A stretch of 7,743 bases of DNA from a virus (lineage: Duplodnaviria > Heunggongvirae > Uroviricota > Caudoviricetes): IMG/VR virus record IMGVR_UViG_2778261303_000002; one strand, given 5' to 3'. Below are positions 1-7,743 of this stretch, piece by piece. A program made the position numbers and the translations under genes. Position 1 is the first letter of the stretch. Every line of letters starts with the position of its first letter. Under the pieces are notes generated by a model that worked only from the letters and a program-made list of their open reading frames with translations, made no database searches and was not told where the DNA came from.

Positions 1-2798
1 GCAGATTTGTCAAAAGTCTGCCCCTGCATCAGGGCATAACCAGACGGAACGGTATCTGATGGCCACGGGATTGGTGCGCCAACTGGGTAGCTTTCTGGTG
101 GAAGATTTTTCGAGGTATAAACTTCTGCCCAGCCTTCCTCAAAACCATAGCCATCTCTTGAGGAACGGTAGAACAGACCTCCATTTCTGTAATGCGCCTT
201 CATCTGCAGGGTCCGGCAACTTCCGACTCCGGTATAGAAGTTAACCAGAATATAGCTGTCGCCAGAGCGGGTGACATTGTAAGCGCCTGATTCGGCATTC
301 CATGGAACGCCCCCATCCGCATCGGCATACGTATCCGTTGCCCTTCTGGCAAAAGCAGCCACATGCGCGGCGGTTAAAGTAATATCTTTGGAACCATCAA
401 ACTCAACACCAGAAACCAGTCTTGGCGTTTGCAGCTTTGTTGCTGTTAATGCATTACCGTTCAGACTTGCGGACAGTTTGGTTCCAATAACCAGTTCGCC
501 GGTTGCGTTATCAATAGCAAACGGTCTTAATGTATTCCAGCCACCATAAACATCACCTTGATTGGTAAGCAGCAGGTAAGTTTTAGCGCCATCATTACGC
601 CATAATGCACCATACTCCCCACCTATCATTCGAATCTGATTACCACCACGCGCTACAATTTCGTCTGTGGCAAAAAGTTTTTTGCACGACAAGTTATCGT
701 TAACGATTAACGAATGAGACTCATAAAAACCACGCCCACTCTTAAAATCAAGGATAACGTCCGCCGCGATACATTCAGTCGCTGGATTTGTTGCCCCAAA
801 CTTATAGGTCGTATCATTAACAACGAGATCAGCACCAGGTGCGGATATTGACAGGCCATCTTCGATAAACGCAAAAACAGGGAAAGCAGCGCCATCAACA
901 TAGAACACAGAGCGCAAATCATCGCCCTTATTACTCATCATTATTGAGTGGATGGCTCGTTCATTGTTTTGATATTGCCAGAACATTCCATAAGCATAAC
1001 GCCCCCTGTCAGTCCAGCCACCAGGCATAACAAATCCGTTAAACTCGCAGTTATTCATCGGATCGCCTGCGGTTCGCGTTGCCGTGGTGATAATGACCCT
1101 TGATGCCAGTTCGCTTACTGAGCCAGCAGAACGCATAACAACAACAGGGTAATATTTTCCAGATGTTGCACCTGCAGGAGCGTTAACCCGCACATAACGC
1201 ATACCACGCTTATCAGCAAAGTCTGTTTTACTGACCGCGTTAATGTTGTTCAGGAAGCGTCCCTTATCGGGTATATCAGCGCCGTTCTGGTCTTTCTGCA
1301 GACGTTTCTCTGCATTGTCATAGGCTGATTTTACTGCCTTTGGCGTTGCCGCCAGCGTTTCAGACGTACTGTTGGTCGCACTGCTGAGCTGTACTATCCC
1401 CTTTTTCGTCGTGCTCGCATCCTCAAGCGCCACGGCGGATGCAATATCCTCTGCCCGTTTTGCCGCTGTCTCGGCGCGCGTTGCCGCGGATTCCGCCGTA
1501 CTTTTGCTCTGTGCTGCCGCCGTCGCACTGCCAGCTGCCTCTGTCGCCTTCGTGGATGCTGTCGTGGCGCTGCCCTTCGCTGCTGACGCCTGTCTGGTCG
1601 CCTCATCTTTTGAAGCAGACGCCGATGATGCCGATGACGCCGCCGAACTGGCTGACGATGCGGCAGCCGTTTTTGAGGATTCTGCGCTGGTTTCCGACGC
1701 TTTCGCGTTCGTTTCGGATGTCTTCGCTGCGGAAGCTGACCTCGCTGCTGCGCTGGCCTGTTCAGTGGCTTCGCCAGCCTTCGTTGTGGCTGTTGAAGCG
1801 GATGATGCGGCGCTTTCTGCCGATTTTCCGGCGGCGGTGGCACTGGCTGAGGCCTGCCCGGCACTTGTTGACGCGGCGCTGGCAGATGATGCAGCCGCTG
1901 TTTTTGAGCCTGCCGCAGCTGAGGCGCTCTGTCCCGCTGCCGTCTCAGAAGACCTGGCGTTCGTCTCGGACGTTTTTGCCGCCTTCGCGGAATTTCCTGC
2001 CGCCGTTGCCGAGGAAGCTGCACTACTGGCGCTTGATGATGCGTTCGTTTCTGATGATTTTGCCGCTTCTTTTGAGGCCGCCGCATCCCGGGCCGAGGTC
2101 GCAGCTTCTGATGCCTTCGTGGTCGCGGTGGATGCAGATGTGGCTGCTGATTGTTGTGACGCTGAAGCATTCGTTTCTGACGTTTTCGCCGCACCGGCAC
2201 TGGTGGCCGCCGCGCTTTTTGAGGACTCTGCAGCGGCAGCACTTTTTGATGCTTCAGTGGCCTTTGTTGATGCCGTTCCTGCGCTGGAAGACGCTGACTG
2301 AGCCGACGACGCGGCCTGTCCGGCTGACGTGCTGGCTGCGCGTGCTGAGTCCGCAGCATCAGCCGCATGGGTTGCCGCCTCACGGGCTGATGTGCTGGCA
2401 TCACTGGCTGACTTCTTCGCGGCTGCCGTGTTCTGTGCCACCGCGGACGCGTTACGCGCCACCTCTTCCACCATCAGTTCAAAACGGCGCAGTGCCTCCG
2501 GACGGGCATCATCCTCCGTCATGGCACCGAGAAAATCATTCAGCGTACCGGGTTGAGAATCTTCATACACGGTGATGGTCCCGGCATGTGACGGCGGGAA
2601 TCCTTCCACCAACAGAATAACGCTGTACTGACCGTACTCAACGTCCATGCTGTAACGCCCGGCTTCATCCGGATTTTCTGAGGCCAGCGTGTTCACCACC
2701 ACCGTGGTGCTGTTACGTTTTGCTTTCAGCTGGATTGTGCAGTTCTGTACCGGTTTTCCTGTGCCGTCTTTCAGTACACCTGAAATCTTTACTGCCAT
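1..2798 (-). CDS. stf: Side tail fibre protein (lambda Stf / StfR-like), N-terminal ~932 codons; the 3' end and stop lie beyond the left edge of the window
   Basis: Hand translation of the minus strand: ATG at 2798-2796 gives [14 protein letters not shown], the recognisable lambda-type Stf N-terminus. The same frame (codon top coordinate = 2 mod 3) gives [28 protein letters not shown] around 2300-2217, [20 protein letters not shown] at 959-900, and [23 protein letters not shown] at 68-1. SD-like GGGGTG lies 4-5 nt upstream of the ATG. Not in the ORF track because no stop occurs inside the window. Only four segments were translated by hand, so an internal frameshift cannot be fully excluded. 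Confidence 0.88.
1500..2470 (-). repeat. GC-rich, Ala/Ser/Thr(+Lys/Glu)-rich low-complexity coding repeat inside stf (fibre shaft); boundaries approximate
   Basis: The true stf frame here reads [27 protein letters not shown]-type repeats. The strong codon-level bias leaves several frames open on both strands (track ORFs 1372..2301 +, 1394..2404 -, 1439..2575 +, 2329..2556 +). Sampled GC is about 63% here versus about 47% in distal stf (421-480). Confidence 0.7.
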
Positions 2799-2809
2799 AT
2801 TCACCCCAC

Positions 2810-2836
2810 AAAAAAGCCCGCCTGAACCGGCGGGCT
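2810..2836 (-). terminator. Putative rho-independent terminator between lom and stf (minus strand)
   Basis: Inverted repeat gcccgcc (2816-2822) / ggcgggc (2829-2835) with 6-nt loop, extendable by an A-T pair at 2815/2836. On the minus strand it is followed directly by TTTTTT (complement of 2810-2815), which runs into the stf RBS. No comparable T-tract on the plus strand. Confidence 0.55.
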
Positions 2837-2862: not shown

Positions 2863-3462
2863 TCAGAATTTATAACCGACACCCACGATGAAACCGTCAG
2901 TGCGCCAGTCACCACTGCCGGAGCCTTCATAAGCAATATCAATGGCCACGGATTCGGTCGGGTTAAACTGCACGCCAGCTCCCCACGCCAGAGACGTGTT
3001 GCTGTGGCGACCGTCATCACTTCCGGTCAGCACGTCGTGCGTTTTCCCCTTGTTGTCAGTTACGCGGAGATAATCCCCGGAGAAAGTCGACACACGGCTG
3101 TAAGCCACACCCGCCATCGCATACGCGCTGAACCATTCATTCACGCGCACAGACGGCCCCGCCATCACGCTGAACCAGCGGTTACGCACGGAATCTTCAT
3201 GCCAGCGGGTATCGCTGTAATGCGTTTTTTGCTCATCTTCAGCGTTGGCATAACTGAATGACGTAATCAGCCCCAGCGTGTCCGTAAACTCATAACGGTA
3301 TTTCACGTTAATCCCGTTCAGATCATCGCTGCCGGGAGCGTTCGTACGGGCATGAAGATACCCTGCGCTCAGTGTGGCCTGCTGCTCAGACGCCCATGCA
3401 GGCGCACCGGATACGGCCAGACAGATGGCTGCGGACAAAATGGCTGCACAAACTTTACGCAT
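2863..3462 (-). CDS. lom: Lom outer membrane protein (Ail/Lom/PagC/OmpX-family beta-barrel), phage lysogenic-conversion 'moron'
   Basis: 199-aa [31 protein letters not shown]..., near-identical to lambda Lom as I recall it. Signal peptide with AWA/S cleavage motif, and a C-terminal ...GVGYKF ending in Phe, typical of OMP beta-barrels. SD GAGAGG upstream of the ATG. Position between J and stf matches lambda gene order. Confidence 0.95.
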
Positions 3463-3486: not shown

Positions 3487-3510
3487 AAAAAAGGCGCCAT
3501 TTCTGGCGCC
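3487..3510 (-). terminator. Putative rho-independent terminator between J stop and lom start (minus strand)
   Basis: Inverted repeat ggcgcca (3493-3499) / tggcgcc (3504-3510) with loop tttc. On the minus strand the hairpin begins 20 nt after the J stop and is followed by TTTTTT (complement of 3487-3492). Confidence 0.5.
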
Positions 3511-3529
3511 CGTATATGGGTTATAAAAT

Positions 3530-6500
3530 TCAGCTGATACTGATGCCTGCGGTGGCTTTCTTCATCACCACAACCAGCAAATCGCTGATACTTGCTGTGG
3601 GATACCAGTCATTTACCAGCCATGCTGACACCGAAAACTCCAGCGTCATGTGGCCGTGACCAGCTGGCATATCAATAACACCACTGTAAATCAGCGTATT
3701 ATCCAGCGCGGTACGGTTATAAATTTCAGCACCATTTTTCTTCACTATCAGGCGGCATGACGAATAAATATCGTTATTCTCCCGCTCATGTTTAGCGCCG
3801 CAGAATGCCACCGCTGGAATAACAATTTGCCTGTCAAAAGGCTGATCGTCATAAATCCTGACGGTAATGGTCCCTGATGACCACCGCTCCGGTGCCCGGG
3901 AGTCCCGCGGGAAAGCCTTACCCACTGTTTTGACAATATCGCCTTCAATCTGATTGGCTGACAGTTTCCCCTTAATCTGACAGTTCTCATTAATCGTGAC
4001 GTTGTTGAGCGTCCCTGAGTTCGCATTCACACTGCCACTGATATCCGCATTTTTAGCGGTCAGCTTTCCGTCTGATGTCAGGGAAAATACCGGAGGACTG
4101 CCACCGCTGGTAATGGTGGGGGCCGTCAGGCGCTTCAGGAACACGTCGTTCATGAATATCTGGTTGCCCTGCGCCACAAACATCGGCGTTTCATTCCCGT
4201 TTGCCGGGTCAATAAACGCGATACGGTTAGCGGCAACCAGAAACTGGCTCAGCTTGCCTTCCTCCGTGTCCTCCATGCTGAGGCCAATACCCGCGACATA
4301 ATGTTTGCCGTCTTTGGTCTGCTCAATTTTGACGCCCCACATGGCATTCCATTTATCGTTAGCGTCCTTCCACTCTTTCGAAAACTCATCCAGTCTGCTG
4401 GCGTTATCCTCCGTCAGATCGACTTTTTCCAGCAGCTCCTTGCCGAGATGGGATTCGGTTATCTGCCCTTTGAAAAAATCCAGGTAACCTTCCGCATCAT
4501 CGCTCGCCCGACCGACGGCCTCCACAAATGCCGATTTGCCTACGGTGTTCACACTGCGAACGTAAAAATAATAATCATGGCCCGGTTTGATATTGATACT
4601 GGCGGCTATCCAGTACAGCGCCGTACCAAGATAGCGCGCTGTGGTTTCAACCTGCCTGATATCGGTAATCCGCTTTTCCGAGAACCAGAACTCAAACTGT
4701 ACCGTCGGGTCATAAACGGCAAGATGCGGCGTGGCGGTTATCTGAAAATAGCCCGGCGTCAGCTCAATCCGCGACGGTGCTGCCGGTGCGGCAATCCGGA
4801 ACGATACCGACGCCGGATCGCCCTGCTGCCCCCACGCATTTACCGCCCGGACTGTCAGCCTGTAGTTCCCCAGCGCCAGTTGCCTGAAGCGGTATGTGGT
4901 TTCCGTCGTCCGGGCCGTGCTGACCAGCCGCTCACTGCCGTCGTCCGCTGTTACGGTCAGACGGAGCAGGAAGCTCACCCCCTTCACCACCTTCGGCGTG
5001 TCCCAGCGCGCCAGTACCTGATACTCCCCGCTGTCTGCGGTGACTTCGGCAGTCAGGTGCTGCACCGCTGGCGGCGTGACACCATTCACCGTGCCGCTCT
5101 GGTCGCCGTCAAAGTACGCCCCGTTATCCACGATGGACTCTTTTTCCGGTACATGCTGCACGGCGGTGATGGCATACGTGCCGTCGTCGTTCTCACGGAT
5201 ACTCACGCAGCGGAACAGGCGCTGGCGCAGCGTCGGCAGCTTCAGCCCCCACACGCTGTATTCAGCAACACCGTCAGGAACACGGCTCACTTTCACCTTC
5301 ACGCCGTCGGTGACGGACTGAACCTCCACGCTGATCGGATTGCCACTTCCGTCAACCAGGCTTATCAGCGTGGTACCGGAGGATGGCAGCGTGATTTCAC
5401 GGTCGAGTGTCAGCGTCCGGGTCTGGCTGTTCACCGCCAGCACGCGCCCGCCGGTGCTGATACCGGCATAGTCATCATCGCAGATTTCAATGACATCGCC
5501 CGGCACATGGCGAAGCCCTTCTGCGCCCACGCAGAAGTCCACGGTCTGCGTTTCCAGCAGTTCTGTTTTAATCAGCCACAGCCCGGCGCGGTGTGCCTGC
5601 CCCCGACTGGTACAGCCAAAGGCATCCATCTTCGTGACGTTACGACCGTAACGGGCAATGGCCTGCGTGTCCTCCACAAGCTCTGTTGCCGTCTCCCAGC
5701 CGTTGTTCGGGTCAATCCAGTTCACCTCAACGGCATTATGGCGGTCCTTCAGGGCGCTGAAGCTGTAGCGGAACGGCGCGCCATCATCCGGCATCACCAC
5801 ATTACTGCGGTTATAGGTCCACACCTTATCCGACGGCCGGTCCTGCACGAACGTCAGCGTCTGCCCGTTCCATACCGGCATACAGCGCATCGCCGAGCAG
5901 AAATCACTGAGCACATCCCACGCCTTACGTTGTGTGGTCAGGTAAGCGTTACAGGTGATGCGCGGCTCCGTACCGCCAAAGCCGTCCGGCACCGACTGGT
6001 CGCAGTACTGGCCGATGACATACAGCGCCCATTTATCCACATCTGCCGCACCAAGACGTTTCCCCATGCCGTAGCGCGGGTGGGTCAGCATATCCCACAG
6101 ACACCAGGCCATGTTGTTGCTGTATGCCGGTTTTAACGTTCCGTCCCAGATACCGCTGTATTGTCGCGTCTGCGGGTTATAGTTCGACGGCACCTGCAGA
6201 ATGCGCCCGCGAAGATGATAATTACGGCTCACCTGCTGGCTGCCGAACTGCTCCGAATCCACCTGCACGCCGACCAGTGCCGTGTTCGGGTAGCACTGTT
6301 TCACATCGATGATTTCGGTGCATGACGACCAGAGCGTTTTGTTCTGCAGCTGGTCTGTGGTGCTGTCCGGCGTCATCCTGCGCATCCGGATATTAAACGG
6401 GCGCGGCGGCAGGTTATCCACCACCACCGAGGCCAGATACTGCGAGGTGGTTTTGCCCTTAATGGTGATGTCTTTTTCCGTCACCCAGCCACCGTTACGC

Positions 6501-6925
6501 TGTATCTGAACCAGCAGGCGGACTTCCGATGGATTCCTGTCCCCCTTTGAGGTGGTTTCCACCAGTGCCTGCACACCGAAGGTAAAGCGCAGACGGTCGA
6601 TGTTTGCCGACGTGATGGTGCGGGTGATCGGCGTGTCATATTTCACTTCCGTACCCAGCACAGTCTCGGAGCCGGAGGATTCAAAACCTTCCGGCGGTGT
6701 CTGCTCCTGCTCACCTGCCCGGAAAACCACCGTGACACCGGAGATATTGGTATTCCCCTCACTGTCCAGCACTGGCGTACTGTTCAGCAGCACACTTTTT
6801 AATCCGTCCACCGGACCTTCAACCGGCCCTTCGCTGATGGCGTCTATCACGCTCAGCATCTGGGATGATTTCAGGTTGTCCTTCGCTTCGCGCGGGGTAT
6901 GCCCCTTACTGCTGCCTTTACCCAT
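3530..6925 (-). CDS. J: Host specificity protein J (tail tip / central tail fibre, receptor recognition)
   Basis: 1131-aa ORF beginning [20 protein letters not shown]..., matching lambda J (1132 aa) along most of its length as I recall it. Follows I after a 60-nt gap. The C-terminal ~140 aa appear to differ from lambda J (see findings). Confidence 0.97.
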
Positions 6926-6985: not shown

Positions 6986-7657
6986 TCAACGACCAATCAC
7001 CACAACCTGGCCACCGTCCCCCTCGTCTGCCGTGCTGATCTCCTGAGAAGCCACCCGCGACCCCACGCGCATTTCACCGTACAGAACAGGCAGAACATTG
7101 CCCTGGGCAACCATGTTATCCAGTGAGGAGAAATAGGTGTTCTGCTTACCGTTATCCGTTGTCTGTATACGGGGAGTTCTGGCTTTCGGTGCCAGCATCT
7201 GCGCCACACCACCGAGCACCATACTGGCACCGAGAGAAAACAGGATGCCGGTCATACCACCGGCCCCAATGGCTGCCCCCCATGCTGCAAGGGTGGCTCC
7301 GGCGGTAAAGAATGATCCGGCAATGGCGGCAGCTCCCAGGACAATCTGGAATACGCCCCCTGACTTGGCTCCGGCGACTCTGGGAACAATATGAATCACA
7401 GCGCCGTCAGGCAGAGTCTCATGTAACTGCGCCGTTAACCCGGACGTGCTGACGTCCCGCCCGGCAATCCGTACCTGATACCAGCCGTCGCTCAGTTTCT
7501 GACGAAACGCCGGGAGCTGTGTGGCCAGCGCCCGGATGGCTTCAGCCCCCGTTTTCACACGAAGGTCGATGCGGCGGCCAAATCGTTGTAAATCCCCGTA
7601 AAGGCAGATGCGCGCCATGCCCGGTGACGCCAGAGGGAGTGTGTGCGTCGCTGCCAT
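6986..7657 (-). CDS. I: Tail tip assembly protein I
   Basis: 223-aa ORF MAATHTLPLASPGMARICLYGDLQRFGRRIDLRVKTG..., the same length and, to my recollection, essentially the same sequence as lambda gpI. Its start lies inside the 3' end of K in a different frame, as in lambda. Confidence 0.95.
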   Translation of the reverse strand: MAATHTLPLASPGMARICLYGDLQRFGRRIDLRVKTGAEAIRALATQLPAFRQKLSDGWYQVRIAGRDVSTSGLTAQLHETLPDGAVIHIVPRVAGAKSGGVFQIVLGAAAIAGSFFTAGATLAAWGAAIGAGGMTGILFSLGASMVLGGVAQMLAPKARTPRIQTTDNGKQNTYFSSLDNMVAQGNVLPVLYGEMRVGSRVASQEISTADEGDGGQVVVIGR

Positions 7658-7743
7658 TTGTCGGTGTACCTCTCTCGTTTGCTCAGTTGTTCAGGAATAT
7701 GGTGCAGCAGCTCGCCGTCACCACAGTAAATGGCGGCATGATT
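7555..7743 (-). CDS. K: Tail assembly protein K, C-terminal 62 codons only; 5' end lies beyond the right edge of the window
   Basis: Minus-strand translation from the window edge gives NHAAIYCGDGELLHHIPEQLSKRERYTDKWQRRTHSLWRHRAWRASAFTGIYNDLAAASTFV then stop (TGA, complement of 7555-7557), matching the lambda gpK C-terminus as I recall it. Overlaps I by 103 nt out of frame. Confidence 0.9.
   Translation of the reverse strand, partial: NHAAIYCGDGELLHHIPEQLSKRERYTDKWQRRTHSLWRHRAWRASAFTGIYNDLAAASTFV

Follow-up and report, generated by a model that had tools for sequence, protein, structure and literature searches.

The 7,743-nucleotide window analyzed here (IMG/VR record IMGVR_UViG_2778261303_000002, Caudoviricetes) carries the 3' end of K, then I, J, lom, and most of a side tail fiber gene, stf, all on the minus strand and in the same order as in lambda and in the Rac prophage of Escherichia coli K-12, an arrangement that marks the distal part of a lambdoid late tail operon. 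The window is the entire contig NOMM01000067.1 (7,743 bp) of the draft assembly GCA_002518575.1, the single record in which the exact J protein is found. Read on the minus strand from 2798 to 1, the stf frame runs for 932 codons with zero stops and leaves two bases over at the edge. This stretch corresponds to the 5' 83% of stfR, a known, named, and ordinary side tail fiber gene of E. coli prophages, and we are highly confident that it represents the opening 932 codons of an intact gene of the stfR type lying in the K-I-J-lom late tail operon of a lambdoid prophage or N15-like phage-plasmid. The gene and its parts are placed as follows.

1..2798, minus strand: stf (stfR allele), 5' 932 codons, stop-free to the contig end; relatives have ~1117-1132 codons
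2493..2798, minus strand: N-terminal tail-anchoring domain and linker, residues 1-102 (PF08400, PDB 9e7m/9mgh)
1422..2492, minus strand: Ala/Ser-rich shaft, residues 103-459, 51 heptads with the consensus A-x-x-A-x-x-S (autocorrelation, heptad table)
1563..1877, minus strand: 105 extra amino acids (exactly 15 heptads), residues 308-412, a block without lambda counterpart when K-12 StfR is globally aligned to lambda Stf
1329..1421, minus strand: conserved junction box, residues 460-490, aligned to lambda 355-385 and common to lambda Stf and Mu S
93..1328, minus strand: non-lambda middle module of 412 amino acids, residues 491-902, beta-rich, unalignable with lambda 386-528, with matches to PHROG tail-fiber families
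684..1226, minus strand: all-beta domain, residues 525-705, which recurs inside the fibers of unrelated phages
465..812, minus strand: domain like the T4 gp34 C-terminal trimerization domain and Mu S, residues 663-778 (PF21446 Gp34_trimer, E 2.6e-27, above its cutoff)
78..362, minus strand: Mu S'-like domain, residues 813-907 (PDB 8ju3 residues 322-415, domain E 2.4e-19)
1..92, minus strand: start of the lambda/T4 gp37-type collar, residues 903-932, where lambda homology resumes and the contig stops

The identity of the gene rests on its closeness to StfR of the K-12 Rac prophage (b1372, 1120 amino acids). The two proteins share 99.4% of their amino acids over residues 1-932 in a single ungapped high-scoring segment pair, with 6 amino acid differences, and at the DNA level the whole stretch matches K-12 stfR at 98.6% identity (38 nucleotide differences). 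This near-identity takes in the 412-residue middle module, placing the window fiber in the StfR allele group. The comparison covers 932 residues, the final 188 of K-12 StfR lying beyond the contig. K-12 Rac also has the same module order, the same 51-heptad shaft, and the same lom-stf neighborhood. It differs in that its lomR is split by IS5 and its tail operon is mostly deleted, whereas K (3' end), I, J, and lom of the window are open and uninterrupted.

The allele is widespread. At least 80% of the 2,798 nucleotides is found in 1,231 of 5,426 complete E. coli genomes, about a quarter of them, at up to 98.9% identity, and matching E. coli records number in the thousands, usually annotated as stfR or as "prophage tail fiber N-terminal domain-containing protein." Judged by phage records, the stretch is also carried by active lambdoid phages: nine records, some of them listed twice, match 80% or more of it with identities of 97.2-98.1%, including Kati, ev099, 2H10, mEp332, and PhiR34_1. 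The best match to the whole contig (96.5%) is pAH01-1, an N15-like linear plasmid prophage with protelomerase and SopAB. A comparison of the fiber protein with NCBIfam assigned no family.

At the N terminus, Pfam PF08400 (phage_tail_N) spans residues 1-134 over its full model length (E 7.8e-72; 240 bits versus a cutoff of 26.6 bits), and residues 1-94 match the collar domain of lambda Stf (PDB 9e7m/9mgh) with an E value of 4.6e-52. Lambda Stf (774 amino acids) is ~94% identical over 1-94, has the same type of heptad shaft and the same junction box, and sits in the same place after J and lom. An earlier note on this DNA, drawn up from the letters and their open reading frames, had proposed a long mosaic side fiber with a conserved lambda Stf N terminus, uninterrupted over 932 codons and more like StfR than lambda Stf. 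The Pfam and lambda collar matches bear out the N terminus, the translation shows neither stop nor frameshift, and the likeness to StfR is that of an allele. Its sampled GC content of ~47% at 421-480 agrees with the computed 46.7%, and the two peptides that it quoted both occur in the translated frame.

The Ala/Ser/Thr repeat shaft seen in the same note is a heptad repeat at the protein level. Autocorrelation peaks at 7, 14, 21, and so on; alanine occupies position 0 in 35 of the 51 heptads and position 3 in 47, serine occupies position 6 in 37, and the phase is never broken. The combined content of Ala, Ser, and Thr is 70-80% across residues 150-450. An unbroken run of in-phase heptads is what a coiled coil requires, so residues 103-459 are predicted from their sequence to form a trimeric coiled coil. 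This agrees with the published Ur-lambda model (PMC12617516), in which the Stf trimer has its proximal coiled coil at residues 102-393, a tail-bound collar at residues 1-91, and a tip that binds OmpC. A tandem repeat of the DNA itself was considered and rejected, with Tandem Repeats Finder giving just two trivial arrays over 1-2900. GC content is ~62% in the shaft (~1400-2500) and 43-49% at 300-1200. The shaft's high GC is due to its amino acid content, since GC at second codon positions (GC2) is 0.78 while GC at third positions (GC3) is 0.54. Long open reading frames in other frames over the shaft, at 1372-2301 (plus strand), 1394-2404 (minus strand), and 1439-2575 (plus strand) (309, 336, and 378 amino acids), are shadows of the GCN-rich heptad repeat and not genes.

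Shaft length falls into two classes among nine alleles: 36 heptads in lambda and PhiR70_1 and 51 in the window, K-12, JNU, Kati, PhiR29_1, PhiR26_1, and PhiR68_2. No intermediate length occurs among the nine, and the difference is one block of 15 heptads. Wherever an allele has the junction box, the box lies in one constant heptad phase relative to the shaft. At ~0.15 nm per residue, the shaft would measure ~53 nm versus ~37 nm in lambda, roughly 15 nm longer.

To map the mosaic relation, K-12 StfR and lambda Stf were aligned globally and Pfam and PDB matches were added, with the following result.

StfR 1-307, lambda Stf 1-307: anchor domain and first part of the shaft
StfR 308-412, no lambda counterpart: 105 extra residues
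StfR 413-490, lambda Stf 308-385: ends in the junction box
StfR 491-902 (412 amino acids), lambda Stf 386-528 (143 amino acids), unrelated: middle module in place of the lambda hinge and distal part
StfR 903 onward, lambda Stf 529 onward: lambda/T4 gp37-type collar

Full-length relatives nearly identical to the window fiber therefore show no end-to-end alignment to lambda Stf, as they carry 105 extra shaft residues and a 412-residue module for 143 residues of lambda. Compared with the window fiber, lambda Stf has 36 heptads rather than 51 and residues 386-528 in place of the Mu S/gp34-like module. The "different distal domain" of the earlier note is present as a region unlike lambda, but it is a middle module and not a distal one, the last 30 residues being back in the collar of lambda/T4 gp37 type.

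The middle module has a GC3 of 0.41, compared to 0.54-0.57 in the remainder of stf, and this genuinely lower value suggests a different origin. Its parts resemble fibers of other phages. Residues 441-521, which begin ahead of the module, resemble Mu S 91-172, residues 706-778 resemble Mu S 268-336, and residues 813-907 resemble Mu S' 322-415 (PDB 5yvq and 8ju3). The domain at residues 663-778, which includes the second of these Mu S matches, also matches T4 gp34 structures (PDB 4uxe, 5nxf, and 9x3r), with residues 706-778 corresponding to gp34 1036-1106. Residues 902-932 resemble the collar of T4 gp37 (PDB 2xgf). For the all-beta domain at residues 525-705, no close solved structure was found. 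Mu S/S' and T4 gp34/gp37 are fibers of contractile-tail phages, with other anchors and without the Ala/Ser heptad shaft, so that individual modules are all that they have in common with the window fiber. Such sharing is classic horizontal shuffling of tail fiber segments. The mosaic build of stfR-like fibers has been a textbook case of tail-fiber module shuffling since the early 1990s, and our finding, an allele of an annotated gene, adds little to it and is of modest practical value. What is gained is a precise module map against lambda Stf, with 15 extra heptads and a swap of 412 for 143 amino acids.

At the left edge, the last 30 residues are 80% identical to lambda Stf 529-558 and match T4 gp37 (2xgf) residues 27-57 with an E value of 1.9e-10. 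The Pfam Collar model scores 20.5 bits versus a cutoff of 24 bits, its match being shortened by the contig end. What follows the collar can be read from full-length relatives. In every one examined, the C-terminal region (903-1120 in K-12 numbering) can be aligned to lambda Stf 529-774, save for a variable stretch at ~1011-1061, and finishes in the same residues as lambda; a His-rich needle and lambda-like tip come after the collar. The fibers of K-12, Kati, and pAH01-1 differ from one another mainly in the ~1011-1061 stretch, which is consistent with its being the receptor-specifying part of the tip. Because this hypervariable stretch differs among alleles, use of OmpC cannot be assumed for the window fiber.

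In every full-length relative examined, the tail fiber assembly gene tfa comes after stf, either directly abutting it or, in pAH01-1, one macro-domain gene later, and PF02413 confirms tfa in K-12 and pAH01-1. The intervening gene of pAH01-1 encodes a 296-amino-acid macro-domain protein and overlaps the stf stop; it is an unusual passenger of a fiber operon. PhiR30_1, PhiR29_1, PhiR26_1, and one further relative have an additional tfa, short or partial and in the orientation of the main one, a few hundred bases past it, with a ybcY-like methyltransferase gene between the two. These second copies may be relics of earlier fiber-cassette exchanges. In PhiR30_1 and phi458, stf is annotated as two or three pieces or as interrupted, with an insertion sequence (IS), IS1, nearby in phi458. 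Frameshifted or broken side fiber genes seem to be common even in viable phages. Laboratory lambda likewise has a broken side fiber gene.

How might such a fiber be built and used? By homology with lambda Stf, the StfR-type protein would be a homotrimer, with four trimers per virion. Residues 1-91 would form the collar that anchors the fiber to the tail, and residues 103-459 an Ala/Ser "zipper" coiled coil of 51 heptads. Residues 491-902 would then form a beta-structured rod or knob made of domains found also in Mu S, Mu S', T4 gp34, and other phage fibers, replacing the hinge and distal segment of lambda. From residue 903 on, a gp37-type collar would lead, as in the full-length relatives, to the His-rich needle and the receptor-binding tip, which would need the Tfa chaperone encoded immediately downstream. 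The assembled fiber would speed reversible adsorption to an outer-membrane receptor (OmpC in the case of lambda) before J engages its own receptor. A more speculative and, in our judgment, unlikely idea is that the 412-residue middle module does more than space the fiber out, in that its beta-sandwich at residues 525-705 could hold a second, lateral site for binding a receptor or glycan, making StfR-type fibers dual-receptor adhesins whose reach is tuned by the 15-heptad extension.

The end of the gene at codon 932 raises the question of whether it was lost in the assembly or in the genome. The earlier note had described the fiber as cut by the window and expected the tip in a wider one. Since the window is the complete contig, the cut is the contig's own end, no leftward extension of NOMM01000067.1 is possible, and that expectation is corrected: the break falls in a shared repeat. 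At the DNA level, stfR is again homologous to lambda stf from stf nucleotide 2719 onward, and the contig stops at nucleotide 2798, i.e., 80 nucleotides into a widely shared fiber block. Across complete genomes, these terminal 80 nucleotides have 5,440 matches in 3,312 genomes (at most 6 in any one), compared to only 2,544 matches in 1,851 genomes for the middle module. The right contig end, in K, is more repetitive still, with 8,709 matches and a per-genome median of 2. Both ends lie in prophage DNA that is multicopy in E. coli. Database homologues of the middle module are mostly "partial" proteins on contigs of ~1 kb. A repeat-induced assembly break likely cut the gene, and the tip, the hypervariable stretch, and tfa would then be missing only through this break in the draft assembly.

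The main alternative is that the source genome itself lacks an intact stf past about codon 932, for instance because an IS inserted there or DNA was deleted, leaving a decaying prophage remnant without a fiber. IS elements do break this tail region elsewhere, with IS2 and ISEc12 within J in three genome matches, IS5 in lomR of K-12 Rac, and IS1 beside the fiber genes of phi458; an IS would break a short-read assembly equally well, and the namesake Rac prophage is defective. However, the match of the contig to intact stfR runs right to the final base, and no foreign sequence is attached there; all frames are open (the K 3' end, I, J, lom, and 932 codons of stf); and the break falls within a fiber block that is multicopy in many genomes, which is sufficient alone to explain it. 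We consider a genuine truncation improbable. Several points nevertheless weigh against an intact StfR-type fiber gene cut by a repeat. The last 185-200 codons, tfa, and whatever lies beyond are off the contig, so the intactness, tip type, and receptor of the source gene are predictions. K-12 StfR, the nearest homologue that bears a name, lies in a defective prophage and is itself without a demonstrated fiber function. The median copy number of the terminal 80 nucleotides is just 1 per genome. The coiled-coil reading draws on sequence periodicity and the published lambda Stf model and not on a structure of an StfR-type protein, and a monomer AlphaFold2 model of residues 505-932 has a mean pLDDT (predicted local distance difference test) of 46, too poor to use, a result to be expected because fibers are interleaved and trimeric.

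Another question, also raised by the earlier note, is whether the fiber belongs to an invertible system of the Mu G, P1 C, or e14 P type, in which a Pin-family invertase past the edge would flip alternative tips and tfa and so switch host range. In K-12 Rac, a 196-amino-acid serine recombinase (PinR; PF00239 and PF02796) does lie 98 bp past tfa in convergent orientation, a recombinase is annotated at the same post-tfa position, likewise convergent, in JNU, O157 493/89, phage Kati, and PhiR68_2, and residues 441-521 are homologous to the region of Mu S around its constant/variable junction. The sites and cassettes that such a switch would use were not found. The gix/hix-type core AAACCNNGGTTT, with 1-2 mismatches allowed, is absent from the window and does not exceed chance in K-12 Rac; the published pix repeat CCTTCTCCCAAACCAA was not found at up to 3 mismatches in the window, K-12 Rac, or phage Kati; and inverted repeats around stf-tfa-pin are at chance level. 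In the relatives, the gap between tfa and pin is just 98 bp and there is no oppositely oriented alternative tip/tfa cassette, and no recombinase is annotated within the fetched stretch of pAH01-1, lambda, PhiR29_1, PhiR26_1, or PhiR30_1, so that the pin-family gene follows tfa in some relatives only. In published experiments, moreover, PinQ and PinR flipped the 1,797-bp P segment of e14, acting in trans, and not the DNA beside themselves (PMC12529663; bioRxiv 10.1101/2025.03.28.646004). With sites and cassettes not found and these recombinases working on e14 rather than on their own surroundings, a local Mu G-type switch is unlikely, and membership of the fiber in such an invertible system is very improbable indeed. 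A neighboring Pin recombinase, where present, should not be taken as evidence of a local invertible segment. A 21-nucleotide inverted repeat (76% complementary), with one arm at the NGADIPDK codons of stfR and the other at the tfaR 3' end, was rejected as chance; it has a 10-nucleotide exact seed, several such pairs occur per 5 kb, and it is unlike known sites.

The remaining features of the window lie upstream of stf.

2805..2836, minus strand: strong, GC-rich, terminator-like hairpin with a T-run in the lom-stf gap (8-bp stem with 7 GC pairs, from a terminator scan)
2863..3462, minus strand: lom, Ail/Lom outer-membrane protein (PF06316, E 4e-127)
3530..6925, minus strand: J, central tail fiber/tip attachment protein, 1131 amino acids (six J-specific Pfam domains)
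6986..7657, minus strand: I, tail assembly protein (PF06805)
7555..7743, minus strand: K (C40 peptidase) 3' end, with its stop at 7555-7557, cut by the right contig end and annotated as a C40 family peptidase in the matches

The mechanically called open reading frame of I (start at 7657, 223 amino acids) overlaps the 3' end of K by ~100 nucleotides. The true start of I is probably downstream of 7657, near 7558, because relatives annotate a shorter I, of 190-215 amino acids, that starts near the K stop and overlaps it.

The hairpin between lom and stf, AGCCCGCC-GGTTCA-GGCGGGCT followed by the T-run, ends 16 nucleotides ahead of the stf ATG, with a Shine-Dalgarno-like stretch, GGGGTGA, between the hairpin and the start. 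Lambda has a similar hairpin at the same lom-stf position, and a second hairpin of the window follows J at 3492-3511. The two hairpins of the window probably insulate a prophage-expressed lom from the late genes and would be read through under Q antitermination.

J of the window is 89.6% identical to lambda J overall, with the divergence at the C terminus. Up to about residue 950, the identity is 92-99%, after which it falls to 62% and then to 38% in the C-terminal receptor-binding part, where GC3 also drops from 0.71 to 0.54 (window 3530-4100, codons ~940-1131). The receptor specificity of this central fiber probably differs from that of lambda J, which is for LamB. The Lom protein of the window is a full-length Ail/Lom barrel that is just 44% identical to lambda Lom.

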